Positions 3,639 to 50,212 of a stretch of 64,000 nt of DNA are shown here, one piece after another. The stretch lies in assembly GCA_964106645.2 (NCBI GenBank), contig OZ067043.1; one strand, given 5' to 3'. The DNA is from Podarcis pityusensis (Eukaryota). Position numbers and translations under genes: made by a program. The notes beneath the pieces are model-generated. The model was given only the letters and a program-made list of their open reading frames with translations. It was not told the DNA's origin and did not search any database. Numbering within the stretch: position 1 is the first letter of the stretch; each line of letters opens with the position of its first letter.

Positions 3639-3988
3639 AAGGTAAAGGTAAAGGTAAAGGTAAAGAGACCTCTGTCCATTAGGTCCAGTTGTGGCCAACT
3701 CTGGGGTTGCAACGCTCATCTTGCATTATTGGCCGAGGGAGCCGGCATACAGCTTCCAGGTCATGTGGCCAGCACATGGAAGAGCAGCACACGGAGACGC
3801 CGTTTACCTTCCCGCCGGAGCGGTACCTATTTATCTACTTGCACTTTGAAGTGCTTTCGAACTGCTAGGTGGGCAGGAGCAGGGACCGAGCAACGGGAGC
3901 TCACCCTGCCATGGGGATTCGAACCACCGACCTTCTGATCGGCAAGTCCTAGGCTCTGTGGTTTAACCCACAGCGCCACCCACGTCCC
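3639..3988 (-). mobile_element. Sauria SINE (lacertid subfamily), near full length
   Basis: Minus strand begins GGGACGTGGGTGGCGCTGTGGGTTAAACC, contains the B-box GGTTCGAATCC and ends in an (ACCTTT)n tail. 13-bp TSD TGCATTGACTGTA at 3626-3638 and 3996-4008. Confidence 0.92.
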
Positions 3989-11587: not shown

Positions 11588-11736
11588 GAACCAACACAGT
11601 ACAAAACTGGAGCAGCAGTTGTCCTTCCTGGGACAATTTCAGGTCCCAGGAAGAAGTCTGGTATGTGGTGTGTGTGTATACGTGCATGCGTGCGTGCATG
11701 TACATACATACATATGTACATATATACAAAAGAGTA

Positions 11737-11977
11737 CAGTGGTACCTCTGGTTACAAACTTAATTCGTTTCGGAGGTCCATTCTTATCCCGAAACAATTC
11801 TTAACCTGAGGTGTGCTTTCACTAATGGGGCCTCCTGCTGCCACTGCACCGCCTGCGCACAATTTCTGTTCTCATCCTGGGGCAAAGTTTTCAACCAGAG
11901 GTACTATTTCCGGGTGAGCGAAGTTTGTAACCCAAAATGTTTGTAACCCAAAGCGTTCGTAACCCGAGGTACCACTG
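11737..11977. mobile_element. Tc1/pogo (Tigger-like) MITE
   Basis: TIRs CAGTGGTACCTC / GAGGTACCACTG flanked by TA dinucleotides. Same family as 48887-49128. Confidence 0.9.
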
Positions 11978-13134
11978 TATGCTGTTCATACTTCCATGTC
12001 CCTGATTGTTGGTCATGCTGGCAGGACCTGATGGGAGTCGAAATCCACAACATCTGGAGGACACCAGGTTGCAGATGGTTAGCCTAGACTATTCTTCAAC
12101 CTTGAGTCCCCAGATGTTGCTGCTATACAATTTCCATCATCTTTGTCCATTAGATAAACTAGAAGAGAATAATGAGAGCTGTAGTCCAAAACTCCTGCTG
12201 TGTTTTGAGTTGTGGCCATGCTAATATTGGGCTTTCCTGTGGCATCTACAACTAACTTTTATAGGAAAGGAGCACAGACAATGGGCACCCTACTCAAGCC
12301 TTCTCATTGTCTAATTGGGTCTGTCTGCTTACCCAAATGTCAGCCTTTGCCATGACTTCATTCATTGGCTAAAAGCATACCGTCCAAACTTATGGAAACT
12401 CAGACCTGTGATGCACATCTTCCATGATGCACTCCCAGGAGAATCACATGACCTGCACCTTGATGTCACCCTGAAAAGAAGCATTTTTTTTCAAAGTGAG
12501 AGTGCAGTGCGAGAGTGTGGCATCCAAAATGGCTTCCGCAATATCATGGGGAAAGAACAGGGCACAGGTATGGAGTAGGCAATTTTTCTTCAGAGAACAA
12601 ATGAGGAGCATTGTGGCTGCACATTTTGCCTCAAATCTCTGTTTCCACCTGTGTTGGAAACTTACACTGATTAAAAAGAAAGCTGGGAATTTGGGGGCTT
12701 ATGACTCAGCCAGGAGTAATGTACACAGTCCCCCTCCCCATGCACACTCACCACAGATTGAAGATCTGAAAGGGGCTATATTGTGATCTAAATGGCTGAC
12801 TGACAATCACTTCAAAACAAACTATTTTTTGAGCCCAGGATGGAATCAAGGAAGCTCACCACCACCATCAAAACACAACAGTCTGAATCAATTCAAGCTT
12901 TAAAATGAGCTTATTTACCATTGTGAATTTTTGCTCTGTTCCTCTCAGCAATTTTCACCATTATAGCTGCAGTCCCAATGAAAGTAGCCCAGACTGCATA
13001 GTATTGCTGTCACAGCAACTGCTCTCAAAGAGCTCTGCACAGAATTCAGCACATTGCTGCTGCTCCAGAAGACAAGTGCTAAATAACAGTAGCAACAGGC
13101 ATGAGGGCACATGATACAGCTGTCTTGCTGATAG

Positions 13135-16600: not shown

Positions 16601-17814
16601 ACTCTACTTGTTGCATGAATCAGCTGGAAGGGTGTGTGGGATGGGGTGAGGTACAAAGCAGCACAGTCAGGTGGTTTTGAACAGAGGCATCTAAAATAAC
16701 TGGATGCTCTGAAGCTTTTTCTGTATCTTCTTTCCTTCCACCCACTAAAAACAGGTGGCTGGCATCCCTTACCCTGTAAATGTCAGGACTGGTTAGATGG
16801 TTTGAAATGCTCACAGGGAAGTCAAGCAATTAATTCTCCCCCTTCACACATTCTCAGGGGTCTGTTTTGTCAGACAATTCAGCTGTATCCTTAAAGAATT
16901 TCACTCCCCTTGCTGTATTTACCCCCAGGGAATAGCTAGTCTCTCAAGCGAGATTAGGATCACTGTAGGCTGCTTCCTCTTGTATAAAGCCTAAGCAAGC
17001 AGGGCTGGGGGAAGGAATCAACCTAGAGATGTGAAGGCCCAGGAAGGGGACGGACAGATGGGGGAGGGTGTTTCCAGGCCTTCACATCTTTACACTGAGT
17101 TTCCTGAAATTTAGAATGTCTCTGAGGGAGACTGCAAGTACTTAAATGAACACTACCTGCTACATACCGGATGAACAAGTTTCCTAACATTTCTGGTATG
17201 GCATCTGAAGGTAACTTCACACATACACATTCATCACTGACTGAAACATCATGATGACTTGCATGTGCGAAAATGCCAAATGGCACAAATAGATCTTTCA
17301 TTTTACCTGTCATGACCTCAAACAGTATTTTTCAATTGAGGTACTTCACACATTCAGCTGTCAGTCTCTGAGTGGTGAGATTTGCTTCAGCAAACGTCCT
17401 ATGTCAAGTGAAATAGGGTATACTTGTTTTCATACATTTGTATATCCAGGGATTTATTAAATTTTTATTTTCAGTTTTCAGTCCAGTGGAAATTAAATGT
17501 GAACGATGTAAACAGATTACAATACATGTCTTGATTTTGCTAGCAGGGAATAAATAATTGTGGAAATCTTCAAAACTTTTCATTTCCCTTACAGCAAGAA
17601 AACATATTTGTAGATTTGGTTTTTGTTTGCTGTTACTTTGTTTGCTTTTATTTTTGCCAAATATTATAAATTTTAGAATTACAAATCTTAAGGCATAAAG
17701 CAAGAAATCCTCTGCCAGTCTGATCTATTATGACCCCCTACCCACTAAATTATGCTGCTGAAATAAAGGAAGTGGAAAGAAGGGTTCAATCAGTAGTAGT
17801 TTGGTTTTGGTACT

Positions 17815-18249
17815 TGTCAGGGAACTGCTATCGGAGCTAGAGGCGGAGGGAAGGCTCCAGAGGGATGGCGGAGAGGGTCCCAGTAGGGAGAGAGGCAGCC
17901 CGTCCACTGGGGAAGGAAATCAGCGTAACACCAGTAGAGAAGGGGGGCAGATGGCGGAATCAGAGAGGAGGCTCCAAGACTCCTCGCCGGAGACCAGCCA
18001 AGAGAGTACGGGTCCTCCGCTGCCCACACCCTCCCTGTGCAGAAGGCTTCCGCGCAGGGAGTCTAGGCGGAGACTAGGCGTCAAGGAACTTTTGTGCTGG
18101 AAGAAGTTTAAGAAACGCCCACTGACGGATTCTGCCAGCGACTGAGACAGTCACGATGCTGGAGGCTGTTCAGTCAGAAAGGGTTTAACCAGGTAACCTC
18201 CCCAGCAGTGGCGGCAACTTACGCACGAGCAACCCCTAAATCCATTACA
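17815..18249 (+). mobile_element. solo LTR (435 bp) of a Gypsy family related to the element at 38438-43928
   Basis: Starts TGTCAGGGAACTGC (same as the full element's LTR) and ends ...CCATTACA. 5-bp TSD GTACT at 17810-17814 and 18250-18254. Open frame 17816-18145 is homologous to the Pol C-terminus. Confidence 0.93.
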
Positions 18250-19662
18250 GTACTCAAAACAAATTCCTGGGCTCAGAATTCTTTAATTCTATGTGCATAC
18301 CTTTGGCACCTGATTCTCCTTGATGGATCTTGGTGTTCTTGGTTGTTGTTGTTTTTTAAAAAAAAGATCCTGCATGCCTGAAATCTGCTCACCCCATAGC
18401 AATGATGACTTCAAAGTTGCAGCTGGGTTAGAGTTCCTGTGGAAAGAGGGGACAGCCATTGTTCCTTCAATTACAGTTTCCTACTCGTGAGACAGTCATG
18501 TAATGCTTGTTTGTGGTTATGCACTAAATATCGATTCAGTGAATCAACACAGGGCAGGGATGGTGACACACAAATACAGCCTGCAATTTCCCATATTATT
18601 TAAGTAAATGCCCCTGAAATGTTTACTTGTATTTTCTCCCTTTCACAATACTGTTTTTAAAACTAAGGAGTAGCGGAGGGGTAAGACTCCAGACAATAAA
18701 ATACACTCCCTTTGTGCATTTGCACACAAAGGCAATTGCTTCAAGATGCCTTTATATATGGCCAAAACTGGCCTTTAGTTCTCAGAAGCAACAGGAAGTG
18801 AACCTCTGAACAATAGCTAATCACCGGAGGTTCCCTGCCTCCCAAACAGATGCTTATCTCCTTCTCCCAGGCTACCAACTGGGGCTTCCGGAGTCAGCAG
18901 AACTCTGAGACAGATTAGTTTCTTACACACACACACCAGCCACATCATGTGAGAAGTGTTCAACGGGTCTATCTTTAGAACTATTTTCCTCAAATATTTA
19001 AGATGATTTAAAAATGCAAACCTAGATACACATGCAAAAGAAAAAGTTGCGTTGATCTCAGGGGAACCTACTTCTGAGTAAACATGTTTAGAATTGTGCT
19101 GCATAGCCTTGAAGTCCATCTGATTAAATGGAGCATTTAAGTTCTGGTTAAATTTAAGGTGCCTCAGATTAAGCCAATACAGCAGCCTTCTTTTGAAACC
19201 CTTGGCAATGGGGAATATTTAGGGTTCTTCTCCCCACCCCCAGTTTTTAACATATCAACAGGAATGTAACACTTTGCACCTTGATGGAACTGTAGCAGCT
19301 GAGGTCTTAATTTGTGAATTGTTGGGACAAGTAACCTCCTTCATAATTACCCCCATTCTGACGATGTTTCAATATCAACCTCCCTGAAGATAAGATTGTT
19401 AGCACATCTCTGATGAATGAACACAAACCATAATTCATTTAGTAGTGAGTCCTGTGTCTCCTATAATACCTACAATTGATATTATTAATTTATTTATACA
19501 ATAGCTTCCTTATGCACCATTTATTTGGTTTTGTTTGTTTGTTCATTTCTATACCGTAAAACTGTGTGTGTGGTGTCAAGAATATCAAATAATACCAAAA
19601 TAACAAGCCACAGAGAACACAACAAATACATGGTGCTTTACAAAGAACAAGAAGCATAATAT

Positions 19663-20009
19663 AAAGGTAAAGGGACCCCTGACCATTAGGTCCAGTCATG
19701 ACCAATTCTGTGGTTGCGGCGCTCATCTTGCTTTATTGGCCGAGGGAGCCGGCGTACAGCTTCCGTGTCATGTGGCCAGCATGACTAAGCTGCTTCTGGC
19801 GAAACCAGAGCAGCGCACGGAAATGCCATTTACGTTCCCGCTGGAGTGGTTCCTATTTATCTACTCGCACTTTGACATGCTTTCGAACTGCTAGGTTGGC
19901 AGGAGCAGGGACCAAACAACGGGAGCTCACCCCGTTGTGGGGATTCGAACTGCTGACCTTCTGATTGGCAAGTCCTGGGCTCTGTGGTTTAACCCACAGC
20001 GCCACCCGC
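19663..20009 (-). mobile_element. Sauria SINE
   Basis: Collinear with the copy at 3639-3988, with an (ACCTTT) tail and tRNA-like head. Confidence 0.92.
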
Positions 20010-34288: not shown

Positions 34289-36929
34289 TGGCAACCTAAA
34301 AGTAACACGACAGGCTAATAATTTGATTACAACACTTTATATAGCTACTAAATCGTACCTTCATTCAGAGTCAAGTGGCATACAATATATACAAGGTAAC
34401 ACCAACTAATGTGACTTCAGAGAATTTCCCAAAGTAGGGAATTTTTTCAATGGTGTATCAAACAGAGAACGATTCAAGCTTGAGGCGACATGCCTTCCAA
34501 AATAGGTATAAAGTCCCAACCACAACACGGATGCACCTGGTTATATTCACAACTTATTCATATATTTAGCAGTGAACACGCTGAAAGAAGTTGGTGCTCC
34601 ACAGGTTGGGAATTTATACTTATTTTGGTGTTACCTTGTATATGTTGTATGCCATTTGACTCTGAATGAAGATACAATTTAGTAGCTATAATAAAGTGTC
34701 GTAATCAAATTATTTTTATTTTTTATTTTTTAAAAATGATATTTATTAAGAGTTTAAGAATTACAGAAAAAAGAAAAAAGAAAACAACAAAAAAATTAAC
34801 AAAGCATACATTACAATACATAAAGAGAAAAGCATAAAAAACAATACAACAATACAGCAAAAAAAAACCACAATAACATTAAAACACACATCCAATGTTC
34901 CATATCTTTATCTTTCACTTACTTGTTTCATCGACCTCCTCACCACCTCCCTTTTTGTATTCTAATTTAATTAATTATTTCAGCAAATTCTTTCCATCTT
35001 TCTCAATTTTTGTTATATAATGTATCTTAACGATCTAACCTTTAAATTAACTCAACAAATCCTTTCCATCTTTCACTATATTCTGTCATTCAATTTACCT
35101 TAATTTATTTAACCTTCTCTTGCCATAAAAAAAACCTTAAAACTTAAAACTTAATGTACATAACTCCTTATATCATTTCTACTAAAGCCAAATACTTTCA
35201 TTCCAACGTTTTTCCTAATACTCATTAATTTTACACTAATTCTCAAAATAATTTTTTTAAAAACTTTCTTCCAATCTTCATCCAACGTCTCTTCTTCCTG
35301 GTCTCAGGTTTTGTCAGTCCTTCTTGTTCATTCCATCTAGTCCATCAACCTGGTGATCTTATATCCGAGGCTCTTAAGTCTTTTCCATGTCCCTTCTGCA
35401 GATCTTCTTCTTGTTTATACCTGGACTTTACTTTATCTTTTGTTGATCTTTTTCTTAATTTCTTTCCTTTCTCCTTGGGGGGTAGGTCTCAGGAGGACTC
35501 CAATCCAAAAATATCTCCATCTCTCCTCAGCAGATCAGCCCATTCCCCACAGTCCCATTCCCCAGAGTCAACACTGTAATCCAGAAAGTATTTAAAAGCA
35601 TGTTTCAAAGTCCTTCCAAAATTAAGAGCCCTCACAACTCCAGACCCCCCCTGGTCTACTCCAGATTCAAACTTCAAAAACAGCAGCTTATGCTCCTGCA
35701 AGGCCTCGGATCTCTCCATTTGTGTTACTTGAGGTTCAACAGCAACCTCCTCCATTATCTTCTGCACTTGCGCTTGCCCTGTCAAAACAAGTCCCTGGGC
35801 TGGTTCCTGAATGGTTTCTATATGAGTATTCGCCGTTTGTCCAAAGTTTTTAACTGCAACAGTCATCAAATCCATCTTCTCATGCATCTGCTCCAGCAAA
35901 GCACTTGTCTTGCAAAAAGCAAGCACCAAGACTTCTTGTAAACACATTTTTATTCAAGGTCAGAGTCTGGTCTCACGATCCTAATCTTACAGCTGTGAAC
36001 TCCCCAGATCGACTCCGGCAACAAATTAACAAGCTCCCTCTAGAGGAGACAATTTCTATTTGTATCCATCTTTTGAAAGCAGGACCAACAAAGAAAAATT
36101 ACTTTCCTTTTTCAAATACTTTGTTTCTTTGAATGCAAGAAGCAACATTGGAGTCAATTTGTTTCTCTTTTTTTTACTATCTGTCAAAAGATGTTCCATT
36201 CACAGTCGATGAACTTCCCCGTAAATTTCTGTCTCTGACACCCCGTTCCCAGGTTTGAGACGGTGGAAATTTATCTTTCTTTACTCTCTCTCCTGCAGGC
36301 TTAAACAGTCAAAAATTCCCCCCCTTTCTCCTGCTTCCAAGAGGGGTTTTGGTGGTAATAACTGAAGGAAATTTAGACATTTATATACGACTTTCCAGAC
36401 TTTAGCTTACAAAGTTTTTGCTTCAATCTATTTACAAAAAGCGGGAGGCGTACTTCCTGTTTAGAACCTTCCCGCTTCAGTGCCAAATTAAAATGTTTCT
36501 TAATCCAATTTTCCGTTCTACTCACGGGTACTTGTTTAGAGTCCAATTGTCCACAGGAAAAAGTCAGCGCTCTCCGGCAACGGCTGTGCGGCTTCACTCC
36601 GTAAAAGTAGTGGTTGATTCAAAACACCACGCCACTCACCCCACGTCGCTTCGGATCCCCGAAAAAGGGTTTCCCTGCGAGTAGGGGAGGCGCTCCTGGT
36701 GTCAGCCGAATCCCACGTTCCCAGGCTTCCTCCGCCTGGGATTTTTAGAGGGTCTCCGCCTTCGCCGCGGCGGCAAGACCCGATTTTCACGGAGCGGGTT
36801 CCTCTCAGTCAGAGGAACTCCGCCATTGCCGGTGGCGCTAACCCGGAAGTTTTCGTAATCAAATTATTAGCCTGTCGTGTTGCTTTTAGATTGCCAGATT
36901 TTTCTGTTTGCAACACGGGGGATCTTTGC
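34289..36929. mobile_element. unclassified insertion with a ~117-bp inverted duplication (possibly Penelope-like), itself split by an L1
   Basis: 15-bp TSD TGTTCTCTTATAATG at 34274-34288 and 36930-36944. The arm at 34289-34405 is the reverse complement of 34625-34714 plus 36869-36896. Confidence 0.65.
34715..36852 (-). mobile_element. non-autonomous, internally deleted L1-clade LINE (~2.1 kb)
   Basis: 16-bp TSD TCGTAATCAAATTATT at 34699-34714 and 36853-36868. CpG-rich 5' end ACTTCCGG...CAATGGCGG, ORF2 C-terminal remnant DQEEETLDEDWKK at about 35263-35303, then AATAAA and a poly(A) tail. Confidence 0.8.
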
Positions 36930-38437: not shown

Positions 38438-38845
38438 TGAGATGGGACGATGAGCTGCTTGTGTGTAAAATCCTAGTCCCTCAGAGTTTGGTCAAGTTTG
38501 CAAACCTCTGTCTGTAACGGAGCCCCTTAAACATGGCTCCGTCAGTCGCTGGCAGATTCCGACAGTGGTTGCTTTCGGAATCGCTTCCAACATAAAAGCT
38601 CCTTAACGGAAACACGTCTTCTGGACTCTCTGCGTGACAGTTTCCGGCGAGGAGTGGGTGTCCCTACAGGAGGTCCTGAAACCTCCCCACTGTTTTCGCT
38701 GGAAGTGTCTCTGAGCCATCCCTCCAGCTCACTTTCCCTCAGCTCAGCTCCTCTCCCCCTACTGGTTCCCTCTTCAGCTGCTGAGTCTCTCCCAACCTGT
38801 GTGAGCCCTTTCACTTCCCTTCCTTCCGATGGCAGTTCCCTGACA
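38438..38845 (-). repeat. 3' LTR
   Basis: Identical to 43521-43928 except C38827 versus T43910. Confidence 0.97.
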
Positions 38846-41800
38846 TCCACCTCCCCTCCAGGGCCCCCTTCATCCCCTCTCGCCCCCTCCTCTACGGGCG
38901 GTGAGGAGGCAAAACCCCGGAATGAACTTCCTTCATCTTCCGATGTCCCGAACACTTCTCTCCACCTGTTGCGGTTCCTGGTCTCGAAGTACTCCTCCTC
39001 CTCAGAGTCCATCTCCCCTTCCCCTTCCGAGTCCGAGAATCCTTCCAACTCCTCCTCCTCATCGGTGGTCCCAAAGTATTCCCTCCGGAACCTCTCCACA
39101 GGCTGAGGTTTCCTTGGGAACCTTTGATGGAACGTTTCTATCAATACCTCGTCATTGATATCTTCTGCCATTACCCAAGTGTTTTCTGACTCCGGTTCTC
39201 CTTCCCACGCTACCAAATACTCCACCTGATCCCCCTTCCACCTGGCGTCGAGGATTTCTGCCACATGGCTGCTGCATTCCCTTTCTTCTATGACCGGTCC
39301 CCGAGTGGCCATCCCTTCTCGTCCCCCCTCATACGGTGACAGTAACGACCTGTGAAATACTGGGTGCAGTTTCATGTGGTTGGGTAACCGGAGCCTGAAA
39401 GCCACTGGGTTGACCTGTTGAATGACCTCAAAGGGACCCAATCTCCTGGGTCTTAATTTCTTACAACCTCCTTTGAACGGCAACCCTTGGGTTGACAGCC
39501 ACACCCTATCTCCCACCCTTATGGTTTCACCTTCCCTTCGGTTCTTGTCTGCCTGCCTCTTGTATTCTTCCTTCGCCCTTTCTAAGTTGAGTTGGAGCTG
39601 ACGATGGATTGCTTCCATTTCTTCTACAAAATGCTCGGCTGCCGGGACGCTCCATCTCTCCCCTTCTCCCCCTGGGAAACCCCTGGGATGACACCCATAA
39701 TTAGCCAAGAAGGGGCTCATCCCTGTGGACACATTCTCGGCATTGTTGTAGGCAAATTCCGCCAGCGCCAACTTTTCTACCCAGTCATTCTCTCTGTCAT
39801 TGACATAACACCTCAGGTATTGCTGGAGGACACCGTTTGCTCTTTCCGCCTGCCCGTTGGTTTCAGGGTGCCGGGCAGTCGAAAAGTTGACCTCCACCTG
39901 CAGTAAGCTCATGAGCTTCCTCCAGAACCTGGAAGTAAATTGTTTTCCTCGGTCTGAGACCACCCTCAATGGCACCCCGTGCAACCTAAAAATGTGTTCT
40001 ACAAATAACTTCGCTGTCTCTTCCGCCGTGACTGCATGCGAGCAGGCTACAAAGTGGCACATCTTTGTTAGTAGGTCTACCACCACCATGATGGCTGTTT
40101 TCCCCTTGGACTTCGGCAGATCAGTCATAAAATCTATCGACACTGCCTCCCAAGGTCGTTCTGGGGTTGGTAAGGGTTCTAATAGCCCCGCCGGTGCCCG
40201 CCTCTCCCCTTTGGCTCGCTGGCATTGCTCACACCCTCTTACATACTCCCGTACATCTTCCCTCACCTTAGGCCACCAAAATTCCCTGGTGACCAACCAC
40301 ATGGTTTTGTGTTGTCCAAAATGCCCCGCCGTGGGGCTGTCGTGCAACTGCTTGAGTACCCTCCCCCTTAAGTCTCCTTCAGGGATATACAGTGCCCCTT
40401 TGTAATACAAAGCTCCATTTCTTTCCTCGAAACCCCCTGGTTCCTCTCCCTCACCCCTAAGACCTCTGAGCTTATTCTGGGCGTATTCATCATTCTCTGT
40501 TTCCTCTACCAGTTCTCTTTGTCCCACCAATGCCGCCCCACACACCCAGCGGTCCTCTGGAATGACATGTCTCTCTTCGGGTGCTCCCTCCCCCTCCAAA
40601 TATTCAGGTTTGCGTGAGAGAGCGTCCGCCCTAATGTTCTCTGGGCCTGGCACGTAACAAATCTCAAAGTTAAATTTGGAGAACTCCTGGGCCCATCTCA
40701 CTTGCCGTTGGTTGAGCACTCGTGCCGTCCTCCAATACTCTAGGTTCTTGTGGTCAGTGCACACTTGCACCTTATGTTGTGCGCCAATTAGCAGGTGCCT
40801 CCATCTCCGGAACGCCTCATGAATGGCTAGTAGTTCTCGGTCATACACCGTGTAGTTCCTCTCGGATTTGTTCAGCTTTCGCGAAAAAAAGGCACACGGT
40901 CTCCACTCTGACTCCTCCTTCCCTGGCTGCAGAAGCACCGCCCCAATCGCTCTGTCTGATGCGTCAGTTTCCACTCTCATCGGTTTTTGTAAATCCACAT
41001 GCAGGAGTTGTTGTTCCGAGGCGAAGGCCCTTTTTAGTTCCTCAAATGCTCGCTCCGCCTCCTCAGTCCAAACGAACTTCTTCTTACTGCTGAGACAGTC
41101 CGTAATGGGCGCCGTCAGGTGGGCAAAGTTTCGGATGAACTTACGATAGAAGTTCCCAAATCCTAGGAACCTCTGCACATCCTTCCTTGTTTTGGGTGTT
41201 TTCCATTCCAGCACCGCCTGGACCTTGCCGGGATCCATGGCCAATCCCTTGTCTGACAGGCGATACCCCAGGAATTCCACCTCCTTGGTATGAAACTGAC
41301 ACTTCTCCAGTTTCACCCACAGCTGGTTGGCTTGCAGCCTGCTCAACACTTCTCTGACGTCTCTCACATGCTGCTCCTCATTCTCAGAATACACCAACAC
41401 GTCGTCTAAGAAGGCCACACAATTCTTGTAAAGCAAAGGCCCCAGGACGTGGTTCATAAACGATTGAAAGCACGCGGAGCCTCCTTGTAGGCCGAAGGGC
41501 ATAACTAAATATTCAAATGCCCCCAAAGGGGTGAACATGGTGGTTTTCCATTCATCCCCCTTCCTTATTCGTATCAGGTTGTACGCCCCCCTTAGGTCCA
41601 GTTTAGTAAAAATCTTTCCCTTCCTGACCCTTGTCAAAATGTCGTCAATCCTGGGCATAGGGAAAGCCACTGGTTCTGACACTGCATTTAAGGCCCTGAA
41701 GTCACACACAAGCCTCGGCTTGTTCGTGTTTTTTTTATCCACAAAAAACACTGGGCTGCCCCCCACCGCCCTGGACTCTCTGATGAACCCTCTCTTCAGG

Positions 41801-42633
41801 TTCTTGTCAATGAACTCTCTTAGCTCCTGCATCTCTCTGTCTGACATGGCGTACAGCTTGCCTACAGGGAGCTGTGCCCCAGGGAGTAAATTGATTTGAC
41901 AGTCAAAGGGTCTATGCGGGGGTAGTTGGTCAGCTTCCCTTTCGCTGAAGACGTCGCGGAGATCTGCGTATTGTCGTGGTACCTTCACGTTCTCCGTTAC
42001 TTCAGTCCCTGCTAGGGTGGCTTGGGCCCCTGCCAAACCCTTTCCCTCTTTGCAGTGTTCTAAGCAATGTGCTGAACCAAAAGAAACCACTCTCTGATGC
42101 CAGCCCACCAGCGGATCATGTAACGCTAGCCAGCTCATCCCCAATATAATGGGAGCTCCTCCCAAGGTGGCCACATTAAACGCTATCAGTTCTGTGTGCC
42201 TTGCCACCTTCATTATCATTGGGACGGTCTGCAAGCTGACTTCTCCTCCCAACAGCTCCCTGCCATCGATCGTGGTCACCTGCAGGGGGTTGCTTAAAGG
42301 GATCGTCTGTATCTGGTGTTCAGCTGCAAACTCTTTGCTCATGAAATTGCAGGAGCTGCCTGAGTCCAACAGCGCCTTTATCTTTAGAGGGTGTCCGTTT
42401 GGCAGCTCTAGCGCCACTTCTATCACTAGGGCGGGTTTAGGAGGTTCTGGCGTGGGCACTTTCACTGCTCTTTGGCCTGGCTGCTGTGCCCCGACGGTGG
42501 CAGCCAGGCGTTGGCTTTTACTTGCTTCGGTATTTCTTCCTCTCTTCCCTCCACAGCTCCTACCATCCCTTGCCATTCCTTCCTCTGGGGGCAGACTCTG
42601 GCAAAGTGACCTGGCTGTTGGCAGAGATAGCAT
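38542..42633 (-). CDS. pol: Pol polyprotein (protease, reverse transcriptase, RNase H, integrase, chromodomain, acidic/basic C-terminal tail), probably expressed as Gag-Pol by -1 frameshift near 42520
   Basis: Protease LLDSGSSCNF; RT LDLRGAY, MPFGL and FLDD; RNase H TDASD; integrase HDSPTAGH..CEQC zinc finger and IDF/SDRG/AER DDE; GPF motif; chromodomain YLVAW..ENTW. 1363 codons without a stop. Confidence 0.97.
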   Translation of the reverse strand: MLSLPTARSLCQSLPPEEGMARDGRSCGGKRGRNTEASKSQRLAATVGAQQPGQRAVKVPTPEPPKPALVIEVALELPNGHPLKIKALLDSGSSCNFMSKEFAAEHQIQTIPLSNPLQVTTIDGRELLGGEVSLQTVPMIMKVARHTELIAFNVATLGGAPIILGMSWLALHDPLVGWHQRVVSFGSAHCLEHCKEGKGLAGAQATLAGTEVTENVKVPRQYADLRDVFSEREADQLPPHRPFDCQINLLPGAQLPVGKLYAMSDREMQELREFIDKNLKRGFIRESRAVGGSPVFFVDKKNTNKPRLVCDFRALNAVSEPVAFPMPRIDDILTRVRKGKIFTKLDLRGAYNLIRIRKGDEWKTTMFTPLGAFEYLVMPFGLQGGSACFQSFMNHVLGPLLYKNCVAFLDDVLVYSENEEQHVRDVREVLSRLQANQLWVKLEKCQFHTKEVEFLGYRLSDKGLAMDPGKVQAVLEWKTPKTRKDVQRFLGFGNFYRKFIRNFAHLTAPITDCLSSKKKFVWTEEAERAFEELKRAFASEQQLLHVDLQKPMRVETDASDRAIGAVLLQPGKEESEWRPCAFFSRKLNKSERNYTVYDRELLAIHEAFRRWRHLLIGAQHKVQVCTDHKNLEYWRTARVLNQRQVRWAQEFSKFNFEICYVPGPENIRADALSRKPEYLEGEGAPEERHVIPEDRWVCGAALVGQRELVEETENDEYAQNKLRGLRGEGEEPGGFEERNGALYYKGALYIPEGDLRGRVLKQLHDSPTAGHFGQHKTMWLVTREFWWPKVREDVREYVRGCEQCQRAKGERRAPAGLLEPLPTPERPWEAVSIDFMTDLPKSKGKTAIMVVVDLLTKMCHFVACSHAVTAEETAKLFVEHIFRLHGVPLRVVSDRGKQFTSRFWRKLMSLLQVEVNFSTARHPETNGQAERANGVLQQYLRCYVNDRENDWVEKLALAEFAYNNAENVSTGMSPFLANYGCHPRGFPGGEGERWSVPAAEHFVEEMEAIHRQLQLNLERAKEEYKRQADKNRREGETIRVGDRVWLSTQGLPFKGGCKKLRPRRLGPFEVIQQVNPVAFRLRLPNHMKLHPVFHRSLLSPYEGGREGMATRGPVIEERECSSHVAEILDARWKGDQVEYLVAWEGEPESENTWVMAEDINDEVLIETFHQRFPRKPQPVERFRREYFGTTDEEEELEGFSDSEGEGEMDSEEEEYFETRNRNRWREVFGTSEDEGSSFRGFASSPPVEEGARGDEGGPGGEVDVRELPSEGREVKGLTQVGRDSAAEEGTSRGRGAELRESELEGWLRDTSSENSGEVSGPPVGTPTPRRKLSRRESRRRVSVKELLCWKRFRKQPLSESASD
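38846..38859 (-). promoter_or_regulatory. polypurine tract (PPT)
   Basis: Minus-strand GGAGGGGAGGTGGA directly abuts the TG of the 3' LTR. Confidence 0.85.
42454..42522 (-). promoter_or_regulatory. putative -1 ribosomal frameshift signal (slippery site plus H-type pseudoknot)
   Basis: pol is in the -1 frame relative to gag. A_GUA_AAA, a 6-nt spacer, 10-bp stem 1 GCCUGGCUGC/GCAGCCAGGC, and loop GGGCAC pairing with downstream GUGCCC. Confidence 0.7.
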
Positions 42634-43475
42634 TTCCGGGCGCCTTTTCCCTCCTTCTTTCCCCCCTCACTGGGCTTTGAAACTGCGCGCGCGCGCGCTG
42701 TTCCGATTTCCATCGGCTCTGCCGGCGGGAAAGTTGGCTCTGGAATGTCTGGAATGCGGAACTCCTTCCAACGTTCCCCCTTCCCTTCCCGCCTCTCCAA
42801 TGCTCTCGCCTCCTGGCGCGCTCCTATGGTCAGCGCTGATTTGGTCAGCTGGTCCATAGACTCCGCCCTGGGCGCCCGGGAAAGTTCGTCTTTCACAGCC
42901 GAAGAAAGCCCTTCTTCAAAGAGCATTTGAATGGGTTCCGCCGATAGATCCCACCCCAATTTATGGATCAACATGGTGAACTCAGTCCAGTACTCACGGA
43001 CAGATCGGCTCCCCTGTTTGCAAGCCATTAACTGTCTGCGGACCACTCCCTGTTCAATATCGCTGGAAAACATCAGATCCATGGCGCGAAAGAACTTCAT
43101 CGTGTCCTTTAGGACGTCACTATTCGCTGCCATCAGGGGTCTAACCCAGTCTCTCGCCCCCTTTTCAAGATGCCCAATCACGAAAGCCACTCGTGATTCC
43201 TCGTCAGGGAATTCATCAAACTGCAGATTGAGGGCATATTGCATCTCTGTCCGAAAGCCATGATAGTCTTTGGGCTCCCCCCCAAACTTCTGCACCAATC
43301 CTGGTACCTTTCTGACGAGCTGGGTGTCTTTCCCCTTTTTGTCTGCATCCTGAGCCCTCCTCTCCTCGAGCCTCGCCGTCTGCAGCGCTAGCTGGACCTC
43401 CAACACCCGGTACCTTTCTTCCAGGCTTAGACCCGCTCCAGCTCCTGCTTCTCCGGTTCCGGCTGGGTTGCTCAT
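42462..43475 (-). CDS. gag: Gag (retrotransposon capsid domain plus CCHC zinc knuckle), PEG10/sushi-like
   Basis: 337-aa ORF starting 45 nt after the 5' LTR. Contains KQGSRSVREY..EF (major homology region-like), EPMEIG and CYLCQQPGHFARVC (CX2CX4HX4C). Confidence 0.95.
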   Translation of the reverse strand: MSNPAGTGEAGAGAGLSLEERYRVLEVQLALQTARLEERRAQDADKKGKDTQLVRKVPGLVQKFGGEPKDYHGFRTEMQYALNLQFDEFPDEESRVAFVIGHLEKGARDWVRPLMAANSDVLKDTMKFFRAMDLMFSSDIEQGVVRRQLMACKQGSRSVREYWTEFTMLIHKLGWDLSAEPIQMLFEEGLSSAVKDELSRAPRAESMDQLTKSALTIGARQEARALERREGKGERWKEFRIPDIPEPTFPPAEPMEIGTARARAVSKPSEGGKKEGKGARKCYLCQQPGHFARVCPQRKEWQGMVGAVEGREEEIPKQVKANAWLPPSGHSSQAKEQ

Positions 43476-43507
43476 GATGCCTTCTCCTGCACAAGCTGCT
43501 CACGGAG

Positions 43508-43518
43508 ACTGTCGGAAT
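43508..43518 (-). promoter_or_regulatory. self-priming primer-binding site
   Basis: ATTCCGACAGT lies 2 nt after the 5' LTR and is perfectly complementary to ACTGTCGGAAT inside the LTR (43639-43649). No TGG-initiated tRNA PBS is present. Confidence 0.8.
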
Positions 43519-43520
43519 GC

Positions 43521-43928
43521 TGAGATGGGACGATGAGCTGCTTGTGTGTAAAATCCTAGTCCCTCAGAGTTTGGTCAAGTTTGCAAACCTCTGTCTGTAA
43601 CGGAGCCCCTTAAACATGGCTCCGTCAGTCGCTGGCAGATTCCGACAGTGGTTGCTTTCGGAATCGCTTCCAACATAAAAGCTCCTTAACGGAAACACGT
43701 CTTCTGGACTCTCTGCGTGACAGTTTCCGGCGAGGAGTGGGTGTCCCTACAGGAGGTCCTGAAACCTCCCCACTGTTTTCGCTGGAAGTGTCTCTGAGCC
43801 ATCCCTCCAGCTCACTTTCCCTCAGCTCAGCTCCTCTCCCCCTACTGGTTCCCTCTTCAGCTGCTGAGTCTCTCCCAACCTGTGTGAGCCCTTTCACTTC
43901 CCTTCCTTCTGATGGCAGTTCCCTGACA
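43521..43928 (-). repeat. 5' LTR
   Basis: TGTCAGGGAACTGC...CCATCTCA, 408 bp, followed by the PBS and gag. Confidence 0.97.
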
Positions 43929-45492
43929 GAAGGTAAACAGCGTTTCCGTACACTGTGGTTTCTGTCGCGGTGTCCCGTTGCACCAGAAGTGGTTTAGTCA
44001 TGTTGGCCACATGATCTGGAAAGCTATCTGCAGACAAATGCCGGCTCCCTCAGCCTAAAAGCAGAGTTGAGCACCACACCCCATAGTTGAATTCGACTGG
44101 ACTTAATCAGCCGGGGTCCTTTACCCTTAACAGCAGTAGAAAGATGGTCTTTCAATAAAATATTTGTTTTTGCATTTGGCCAGAAATGCTAAAATCAGAA
44201 TCTCTATGGTAACATAGAAATTGTTGAGACTTGTAGGTGTATTTTCCATTTACTGGGCATTATACTAGGGGCGGAGAGCAGGCAGGGGCGTGGCTGGTGC
44301 ACATCCCGGGGGTGTGGCACGTCGCCCGCGGGGGCATGGCACCTAGCGTGGTGGGGGGGCACACAGCGTGTGTCTGGGGGGGGCAGTCACGATGGTACCC
44401 TGCTCCCTGATAGTGCTGGGGGCGGTGTGCTCCCCGCGCGCGCCCCCATTCCTCTGCCAATGGGCAGCAGTGATGTATCTTTAGCAAAGATCAGAACTAC
44501 CTCATACCTGTCAACTGCTCCAGAAAAAACGGGACATCTCATTTTTTTTTCTCACAAAAGGACAGTGGTCAAAGTGGCTGCCATGATTTTGCACGATTTT
44601 GGGCTGCACTTTTTTCAGGCATGGCACCCAAAAGCACACATTTTGGGGTGCTGCCCAAGATTGCTGCCCTGAAAAAAAGCATTTTGGGGGAGCAGCGATT
44701 TTGTGTAGCACCCCAAAACATTCATTTTTGGGTGCTGTGCCAGGAAAAATTTGCTGTGATTTGTGCAGGAGGGTTGATCTGGAAGATAGTGTCCTGGATA
44801 TGGGGGTGCATTGTATTGGAAGAGCCAAACTAGAAGTTACACAGGTCAGAAACTTTGGCCTTCCAGATGTCACTGGACTACAACTCCCATCATCTCTGAT
44901 AATTGACTGTGCCAGCTGGGGCTGATGGGAATTGGGAGTCCAATAATATCAGAAGTTCCGCACCTGTCTTACACTTAACATGTGGTTGCTACCAAAAATG
45001 GCTGCTTGTCTAGATTCCCCCTCCCTTTCCCTGTCTAACAGAACCCATCTGTGCCTAGATGGTTACAATGCTGTAGTTTGCTCTGATGCTGCTCTCCAAC
45101 ATTGACTGCTACTTATACTTATTGGGTAGGGGGAGTGCCACACTGAATGTCAATGTAAACTATGAAGCCTGCTAACATAAAACAATGGCGTGGGAGAATA
45201 AAGTGTGGAACAGAAGATGGACCACAGAGGTGTGAGGAAAGACATATGCAACATAAGCTCTTCTGGTTCTACCTCTGACTTCTGTGCATTCAGCAGAACC
45301 TCTGCATAGCACCTATGTGCACATAAGCTTTATGCATCTAGACTCTCTGCATAGTCAAGGACCCTGTTTTTTCCAGGGTGTACAAGCCCATATACATGCA
45401 AGATGAATGCGTGTAGTTTCACATCAGAGGTTCTGCTGCATTGATAGAGGTCAGAGCATAGGGCCGAAGCTTAGTGGTCCAGCATATACTCT

Positions 45493-48600: not shown

Positions 48601-48886
48601 GTGAACGTGCTGGATTTCCCTCTCTAAAACATGAAAAACAATTGGGTTTAATTTGTGTTCTGTCATGACATGCAAGTAAATCCCATGCCAAAACCTCCAT
48701 CACCTTAGAACATACAGTACACTATTACTAACTTTCAGAAATATACTAATCAAACTGAATATGCCTCAGAAAACTATCAGCTAAAACCATGCATTTCTCT
48801 GAGATGTAATTGTTTTTATTTTTATTTTTATGCTGTGACTTAGGGTGGTACAGTGACTTAGGTTTATGCTGTGACTTAGGGTGGTA

Positions 48887-49128
48887 CAGTGGTACCTCGG
48901 GTTAAGTACTTAATTCGTTCTGGAGGTCCGTACTTAACCTGAAACTGTTCTTAACCTGAAGCACCACTTTAGCTAATGGGACCTCCTGCTGCCGCCACGC
49001 CGCCGGAGCCCAATTTCTGTTCTTATCCTGAAGCAAAGTTCTTAACCTGAAGCACTATTTCTGGGTTAGCGGAGTGTGTAACCTGAAGCGTATGTAAACT
49101 GAAGCGTATGTAACCTGAGGTACCACTG
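48887..49128. mobile_element. Tc1/pogo (Tigger-like) MITE
   Basis: TA-CAGTGGTACCTC...GAGGTACCACTG-TA. Confidence 0.9.
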
Positions 49129-50212
49129 TATACAGATTGATTGATTGAATAAATAAATAAAGTTAGTTAAACACATTAAGAACAAGAGTAATTTACAGAT
49201 ACATTCCTACGGTGACAGTATTGTGAGGTGGCACTTGGTAGTTGAGGAAATGTCCCGTCCCCCCTTGGTCCACTGGCTGTGTACACAACATACATTTAAA
49301 GCACCCCACCCCCACAAGAATCCTGGTAGCTGCAGTTTGTTAAGGGTGCTGGGAAATGTAGTACTGTGGGAGGAGGTAAACAACACTTTGTTTGTATGTG
49401 GATAGTATGTCATTTTCTTGGCACAAAGGTCAACCACTTTTATGTCTATTTCCTGTTCCTAATTTTCAGCATCAGTTGTGTTTTCTCAGGCTACCTTGAG
49501 GTATGTGTGGGTAAAAATATTAAGTGCAAAAATGAATTATACACATCCAAATGCACTGTAGACTTGAACTGGTAAACCTAAGCCAGTCACATTTTTCCAG
49601 CACATGTTCTCTGCATGCCCACAGCTCTTAGGTCATACACAACTCCCTTTCACACATTACATGTTTACCACAGCAAACAGAAATGTAACCATAGCCTACA
49701 CGATTGTGAAGCAGCTTTTAGGTTTTTTGTTCTGCATAGATAGAAGTACACGTGATGACATTCAGAGGCATCAAGTGATACATTGATCTGATCCTTCAAG
49801 GTTCTGCAAGACATCTATTGTGAGATGCTAGTTTCTCAACTCCCACTGATTTATATGAAAATAAGGTCAGTTTTCCCAATTACCAAAAAGATGGCTTATG
49901 TTCTGAGAGCATCTTATTGTAACTTTATTTGTTTCTTTATTTAACTTGATTTTCACTGTGATTTCATAGTTCACACACACTGTTAACAAAGTTACACTGT
50001 TTTATGTGCACATGTTAAAATGTAAAGTATGAATGCAACAAACATATTTTTATAAACATGCCTATTATATGCTACTAGGGAGCTAGGATTGCCTATAGCC
50101 CCCCCCCCCATGTGTGTATGCTAAGAAACAAATATATGTTTGCCACTACATAATGTCTGAAGCAAGAGAAAACTCCTACATGGAAACAACTTCGCTATTG
50201 CAAAAAGCATGT

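Follow-up and report, generated by a model that had tools for sequence, protein, structure and literature searches.

Our preferred reading, to which we assign a probability of about 0.6, is that the solo LTR at positions 17,815–18,249 (+) of the window (the whole stretch of 64,000 nt that was analysed) inherits the last 109 pol codons of a lacertid Gypsy chromovirus clade, that a basic/Cys-Trp motif encoded by this frame has been under selection, and that the tail is likely an integrase module for nuclear entry and chromatin tethering. In families A, B, D and E of the clade, pol crosses the polypurine tract into the 3' LTR, and we regard this read-through, together with selection in the replicating lineages, as practically certain. 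The solo LTR is a fossil of that selection on Pol in replicating elements.

The solo LTR and the families of the window

The solo LTR is 435 bp long, has TG..CA ends, and is flanked by a 5-bp TSD (GTACT at 17,810–17,814 and 18,250–18,254). Its sequence assigns it to family B, the sister family of the Gypsy chromovirus that is present in the window and is here called family A. The first-pass annotation had called it diverged; it is not an old copy but a young member of a large family (96–98% to its relatives), and the 40 LTR copies scored of 3414 candidates are 96–100% identical. Perfect TSDs were found for 22 of 30 fetched B1 LTRs. The frame of the solo LTR was confirmed to be open from base 2 for 109 codons, followed by TGA (17,816–18,145, +), and that in the LTR of the full-length element for 100 codons; an open frame of 109 codons, taken alone, has a chance probability of P=0.019 (base shuffles). 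The noted identity of 30 of the last 44 amino acids between the two frames also held, with 15 of these 30 residues encoded by different codons; the same applies to 9 of the 15 identical residues in the block that the annotation had quoted. The 27-bp difference in LTR length proved to be in frame and amounts to a net nine codons. A search with the pattern of variant codons recovered B subfamilies in 5 of 8 matches and chance matches in the other 3.

The family A element is full-length (38,438–43,928, −; TSD CCTTC), and its LTRs differ at 1 of 408 nt. On the same strand, it contains the 5' LTR at 43,521–43,928, a gag frame at 42,462–43,499 (345 codons from stop to stop, with capsid and CCHC knuckle), and a pol frame of 1374 codons at 38,542–42,666 that encodes, in this order, PR-RT-RH-IN-SH3, a chromodomain, an acidic tail and the LTR tail. 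The PR-RT-RH-IN order and the C-terminal chromodomain found with Pfam, as well as the TG..CA LTRs, the polypurine tract and the 5-bp TSD, match a Ty3/Gypsy chromovirus. Pfam yielded no family matching the LTR peptide, and no match in the 138 window ORFs of at least 75 aa outside this element. Over 104 aa, no difference was seen among the 150 copies listed (there are at least 150 copies), and the same 1374-codon pol frame was counted by eye in about 106 of the 150. Family A is very young and abundant, and the element of the window is intact.

Several further features were observed in and around the elements. A GGGAAAC-type slippery heptamer is located at the gag/pol overlap in B and D (loci L064, L032 and L119), and family A, the most active family, is without it at the matching place (window about 42,500–42,530, −). 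One SINE-like interspersed repeat (88–89% alike) is found at 3655–3981, 19,662–20,007 and 43,977–44,081, with one copy inverted and adjoining the 5' end of the element. Short MITE-like elements with terminal inverted repeats are present at 11,728–11,986, 48,884–49,131 and 34,340–34,690.

Read-through of pol into the 3' LTR

In the family A element, the polypurine tract (38,846–38,871, −) is read in frame, the junction GGA-TGT-CAG encodes D-V-R, and the 3' LTR (38,438–38,845, −) encodes Pol residues 1275–1374 (38,545–38,844), including the basic/Cys-Trp motif at 38,572–38,634. The solo LTR has the corresponding frame of 109 codons, which in a 3' LTR supplies the C-terminus of family B Pol. Read-through in family B, a check that the first-pass annotation had proposed, was found in frame at 6 of the 8 junctions examined (5 loci had been picked for long frames; the two exceptions were one deleted and one frameshifted copy).

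Family D was revealed by one of its solo LTRs (638 bp, TSD ACGTG, internally rearranged), which is nested in an A-type 3' LTR (L082:1955–2592). The family has a 762-bp LTR and an RT at 68% to that of A; one of two elements contained a read-through pol of 1558 codons, and the LTR frame was open for 209–213 codons in 29 of 29 loci. The RTs of the D and E lineages together range from 68 to 80% to A. A third P. muralis protein provided a query, ending before the Cys-Trp motif, that recovered many older subfamilies. This diverged set comprised 52 loci fetched from 150 listed matches; the junction was present in 50 and in frame in 48 of the 52. The LTR frame was open up to the Cys-Trp motif in 34 loci, in 12 the motif followed a stop or was displaced into another frame, and in 4 the pattern did not detect it. 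In a tree with one chromovirus outgroup, D, A+B and E formed separate clades with starred support (52 of 66 rows, those of at least 140 aa). The in-frame LTR lengths vary from 67 to 213 codons, and nearly all begin with D-V-R at the GGA-TGT-CAG junction. Nearly all likewise end in the consensus basic, G/S, hydrophobic, R/K, R/K/E, L/W/F, L/A, C, W, basic, with the order W-C in D.

The only proteins with the tail that homolog searches retrieved were Podarcis muralis UniRef proteins and one Logan protein, a distribution that may reflect annotation rather than range. These relatives make a lacertid host probable. A pattern scan of metagenomes gave 596 matches, none of which was confirmed, the ESM Atlas contained no usable match for the tail (only chromodomain clusters, under 0.9), and PDB profile searches with alignments of the tail and of the TIM-like motifs described below gave only matches at E=0.45–1.4. 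The region is covered by contigs from four sequencing runs; such contigs do not mark RNA starts or ends.

A further motif is shared by the LTR frames of E and of basal B copies (L121–L156 and others) and reads Y-R-E/D-P, then a hydrophobic pair, a Ser run and acidic residues; it is absent from A and B1, and we take it to resemble a phospho-SIM. In addition, the older full-length copies cluster strongly on a single contig of 38 Mb, which may be a W chromosome or another non-recombining region.

Selection on the LTR-encoded tail

The first-pass annotation had proposed purifying selection on an LTR-encoded peptide and had expected a dN/dS well below 1 over the U3 ORF. The A/B comparison of the last 44 codons agreed with this expectation, with a pN/pS of 0.25 (CI 0.14–0.38), and the value was 0.22 (0.12–0.38) when the last 8 codons were omitted. 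Within-B pairs mostly gave 0.09–0.33 for the same region, with one value of 0.00 and one of 0.68 for a near-identical pair. By codon position, A and B are identical at 31, 37 and 18 of 44 sites, and 26 of the 46 mismatches fall on third positions (hypergeometric P=5e-5). The shifted sense frames had pN/pS values of 1.64 and 2.16, and the antisense frame that shares third positions had, as expected, 0.34. The portion of the frame that is conserved across lineages is the motif of a basic cluster, a hydrophobic Cys-Trp segment and a second basic cluster (18,053–18,115, + in the solo LTR). Its Gly, Leu and Cys are each encoded by several codons, its synonymous sites are saturated (pS about 1.0, pN 0.18), and five disjoint E pairs gave 0.29 (0.12–0.58) for the 8 codons ending at W.

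With the NG86 method, natural copies were compared in six pairs. The values were 0.09–0.40 for the pol core (the higher ones include private damage and out-of-frame starts), 0.05–0.28 for the chromodomain, and 0.12–0.25 for the TIM-like motifs versus 0.33–0.53 for the linkers. The first 56–65 LTR codons were weakly constrained (0.26–0.80), and the last 44 gave 0.09–0.24, with wide intervals for close pairs (up to 1.14 for A1/A3). These substitution patterns indicate that purifying selection maintains the terminal basic/Cys-Trp motif in replicating lineages, and that constraint is uneven along the LTR frame.

Among 27 near-identical B1 LTRs (30 minus 3 duplicates), the singleton changes numbered 33 N and 15 S, where the ratio of sites is about 3:1 (binomial P=0.31). 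For the last 44 codons, the changes fixed between B1 and B2 (3N:12S) differed from the singletons (11N:5S; Fisher P=0.011), whereas for the first 65 codons fixed and singleton changes did not differ (P=0.80). The proposed purifying selection is thus upheld for the amino acid sequence by the A/B ratio, the third-position skew and the comparison of fixed with singleton changes, but not for the solo copy itself, for which the singletons are compatible with neutrality. The two private changes of the solo LTR are both non-synonymous.

The LTR frame of family A contains no ATG and hence no Met. Therefore, what the 3' LTR encodes is the C-terminus of Pol/integrase and not the separate LTR product that the first-pass annotation had envisaged; because, in addition, the private mutations look neutral, selection acted on the Pol/integrase tail in replicating elements and not on a solo-LTR peptide. 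An accessory protein encoded by the LTR itself, nef- or sag-like, possibly made from solo LTRs and useful to the host, would fit the internal Met at codon 46 of the solo LTR frame and the open frame in 30 of 30 fetched B1 LTRs. However, open frames are expected in these copies because they are young, the frame of A is continuous with pol, the frame precedes the inferred start of the RNA, and the neutral-like private mutations argue against a function of the solo copies, so that such a protein is extremely improbable.

Primer binding site and constraint on the RNA level

No tRNA-type PBS was found in the elements examined. The survey included 25 elements, 12 of which had a 5'-LTR alignment; in 9 of these 12, the LTR contains a perfect complement of 10–11 nt to the PBS, with family-specific sequence on both sides. 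One of the remaining three has a single mismatch, which would be a G-U pair, and two gave partial alignments without the true LTR end. In the family A element, the PBS (43,508–43,518, −) lacks a tRNA-type TGG start and is complementary over 11 nt to a site in the 5' LTR (43,639–43,649; shuffle P=0.0024). The 11-nt site complementary to the family B PBS is located at 18,121–18,131 (+) in the solo LTR and, by the mechanism published for Tf1/sushi elements, would be the RNA 5' end and self-primer, and thereby the U3/R border. Self-priming with a PBS complementary to the element's own LTR is described for Tf1/sushi elements in the available parts of two papers (PMC6317226, PMC4600332), and we consider it very probable for the clade studied here.

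In A, B and D, the complementary site falls in the last 8 codons of the frame, whereas one E element has its stop ahead of the site. Within these 8 codons, A and B differ by two non-synonymous and no synonymous changes, and both changes are mirrored in the PBS. Because of this overlap with the inferred self-priming site, the constraint on the last 8 codons probably acts on the RNA, through pairing with the PBS. The claim of the first-pass annotation that selection extends beyond promoter DNA stands for the basic/Cys-Trp motif but probably not for these terminal codons.

Could promoter or RNA constraints alone explain the whole conservation? In A, B and D, 23 nt separate the Trp codon from the site downstream, which is a TATA-like distance from the inferred start, and the DNA at the motif is AT-rich in A and D; for the last 8 codons, the explanation holds. 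In E, however, the distance is 24–31 nt and the DNA is not AT-rich, which argues against a promoter-only reading, as do the saturated synonymous sites over the motif and the retention of the frame across LTR ORFs of 67–213 codons. For the motif, this explanation is largely refuted, and we rate it as very improbable overall.

Downstream of the stop codon, the annotated length of 104 nt applies to both LTRs of the window but is not a constant of the clade, as relatives with a placeable end have 100–129 nt. The poor conservation of this part was also reproduced (45% identity, ungapped), but it is presumably R/U5, and a local hairpin with modest z-scores is predicted at and beyond the stop in A and B (18,140–18,175, +, and 43,586–43,630). 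The hairpin is present in A and most B copies, which have no AATAAA after the stop; AATAAA is found there, without such a hairpin, in D, E and two basal B copies. From the position of AATAAA in D and E, the genomic RNA would include the entire frame within its 3' end. Folds of the whole post-stop region were not significant (z −0.2 to −1.2), and Rfam yielded only three sub-threshold chance matches.

Motifs upstream of and within the LTR

Between the chromodomain (PF00385; 39,121–39,264, − in the family A element) and the polypurine tract, A, B and E contain two TIM-like motifs and D contains one, each composed of an aromatic helix, an S/T-acidic linker and FxGF. In family A, motif 1 (39,037–39,093, −) has a helix, an acidic S/T linker and LxGF, with L in place of the first F of the FxGF found in most relatives, and motif 2 (38,911–38,967, −) has a W-x-x-x-F helix, an acidic linker and FRGF; the single motif of D has an S/T rather than an acidic linker. 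In a screen of 63 loci, FxGF was found in 57 of 57 post-chromodomain regions (shuffle mean 3.9), a count that is inflated because 52 of the 63 loci were retrieved by a motif-holding query; D was found independently. The full pattern of helix, linker of 7–16 aa and FxGF was present in 55 of the 57 regions (shuffle 0.2), and 55 also had a CK2-type S/T site. The chromodomain itself, compared with a chromovirus outgroup, has apparently lost the first and third of the aromatics that we take to form its cage, and D is also without the Trp. Group II chromodomains of such a kind are described, in the accessible text of one paper, from plants only (PMC3605345).

According to the parts of the source at hand, TIMs consist of a helix with an F/L/V/I anchor, an acidic linker of 8–16 aa and FxGF; tandem TIMs and control by CK2 are known, and FxGF is specific to and essential for binding to LEDGF and HRP2 (PMC9987994). 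Exons of LEDGF and HRP2-like genes are present in this genome, and one LEDGF-family exon is identical to P. muralis PSIP1. We slightly favour the view that the TIM-like motifs may bind LEDGF/HRP2. The stricter LEDGF-type consensus D/ExExFxGF, as given in excerpts of another paper (PMC8022399), was found in 29 of 57 regions and is absent from the family A copy of the window and from the printed B1, B2 and D copies. That it is missed in A, B and D would suit an alternative in which the tail serves generic nuclear import or nucleic-acid binding and FxGF binds another TND protein (IWS1, TFIIS, ELOA, MED26 or PNUTS) or acts in transcription and not in integration; TIMs indeed engage several TND proteins (PMC9987994, in the parts available). 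The published specificity of FxGF and its retention at low pN/pS speak against this alternative, which we judge to be improbable.

The 38 distinct LTR-encoded tails, which were selected by this very pattern, all have Cys adjacent to Trp (in W-C order in D) and a net charge of +5 to +11 over 25 aa. The classical bipartite NLS consists of two basic clusters 10–12 aa apart; 12 of the 38 tails match it, including those of A and B1 (shuffle mean 1.4, maximum 6), and in the family D tail the second basic cluster is missing. The near-invariant Cys is not accounted for by an NLS. By analogy, the motif might combine a bipartite NLS with docking of a host factor via the Cys-Trp linker, a tentative assignment that we place a little below even odds. 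The Cys keeps alive another interpretation of the same read-through product, namely a membrane anchor, with Gag-Pol or particles attached to a membrane through a basic amphipathic helix whose Cys is S-acylated. The motif presumably resembles the palmitoylated helix 8 of GPCRs, and the Cys-Trp pair, the charge and a hydrophobic moment of 0.27–0.54 in all but one E tail are in line with it. However, A and B reach a moment of only about 0.2 and D one of about 0.1, the tail follows a chromodomain and motifs of a nuclear type in the same protein, and a small set of papers listed on the subject included no retrotransposon precedent; a membrane anchor is therefore unlikely.

Discussion

The preferred reading, an integrase tail for nuclear entry and chromatin tethering, suggests the following scheme. 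In A, B and D, RNA synthesis would start some 8 codons ahead of the stop, with self-priming at this site; given that start, the frame would fill U3, and only the copy at the 3' end of the genomic RNA would be translated, within Gag-Pol. The end of Gag-Pol would consist of the chromodomain, two TIM-like motifs, a spacer and the basic/Cys-Trp motif. After phosphorylation by CK2, the two helix-acidic-FxGF motifs could bind the TND/IBD of LEDGF or HRP2, and this tether would bias insertion toward transcribed chromatin, replacing the degenerate chromodomain. The LTR-encoded motif would act as a bipartite NLS, with a Cys-Trp linker that docks a host factor, as in Ty1 integrase. In its widest form, which we put forward only tentatively, the proposal is that a vertebrate retrotransposon clade swapped chromodomain targeting for mimicry: tandem FxGF motifs would hijack LEDGF/HRP2, convergent with lentiviruses but via the host's own type of linear motif, and would be joined by a docking/import motif encoded in U3 whose last codons double as the self-primer.

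The element is, as judged from its sequence, a chromovirus with Tf1/sushi-type priming. It shares with Tf1/sushi chromoviruses the order PR-RT-RH-IN-chromodomain and the 5-bp TSD and, as far as the available parts of the papers describe them, the self-priming PBS (PMC6317226, PMC4600332) and the LTR start TGTYANR of the Sushi model (PMC3601003). Unlike in these elements, Pol runs 190–370 aa beyond the chromodomain and through U3, and A and most B copies are without AATAAA after the stop; the U3 is purine-rich and coding, whereas that of Sushi is described as T-rich in the source excerpts. Plant CRM elements of group A likewise have a pol that extends into the 3' LTR and an LTR-encoded putative targeting motif, the CR motif. 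However, CRM elements, as described in the accessible literature, are centromeric, use a tRNA-Met PBS and have the CR motif in place of a chromodomain. Here, the PBS is self-priming, a chromodomain is kept upstream of the polypurine tract, the host is a vertebrate, copies are found on many chromosomes, and the LTR-encoded motif shows no known likeness. The resemblance to CRM is probably convergent, and the element is not a CRM member.

The Ty1 integrase C-terminus, with its bipartite NLS and TD1, also has two basic clusters around a linker whose hydrophobic residues, Trp among them, dock a host factor (PMC7459421, PMC10050235, available parts). Nevertheless, Ty1 belongs to the Copia elements, the spacing of its NLS clusters is about 30 aa versus about 10 here, and, unlike for the motif studied here, no LTR placement is described in these parts. 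The LEDGF/HRP2 partners IWS1, MLL1, JPO2 and JIL-1 resemble the tail in having, in tandem, a helix, an acidic S/T linker and FxGF (PMC9987994, PMC6877644, PMC10854676, excerpts), whereas the motifs described here are located on a retrotransposon integrase tail, and those of A, B and D miss the strict consensus. In the accessible descriptions, HIV-1 integrase engages LEDGF by a pre-structured surface and not by a linear motif as here.

The 40 distinct insertion sites of solo LTRs (B, D) show a symmetric target preference, with A/T at the position three bases away from the TSD on each side (39/40 and 40/40) and A/T at the TSD centre in 35 of 40. Pol III targeting as in Ty1 was rejected, as a tRNA call was obtained in only 1 of 40 insertion flanks.

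Literature searches yielded neither read-through in a vertebrate chromovirus nor a TIM on a retrotransposon, with subscription papers and repeat-library annotations beyond reach. Pol extending into the LTR is already known for plant chromoviruses, and the vertebrate case was not found described. New here are the FxGF-type motifs, by motif type candidate LEDGF/HRP2 ligands, that directly precede the LTR and adjoin a chromodomain whose aromatic cage has apparently been lost. For lizard genomes, the read-through explains the open frames in many solo LTRs. As a single stretch of DNA combines the roles of protein tail, U3 and att site, and probably that of primer, conservation of LTR codons should not always be equated with selection on a protein. 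If the FxGF motifs bind LEDGF/HRP2, a non-lentiviral mobile element, in a very young and abundant family, would be using the tether of HIV.
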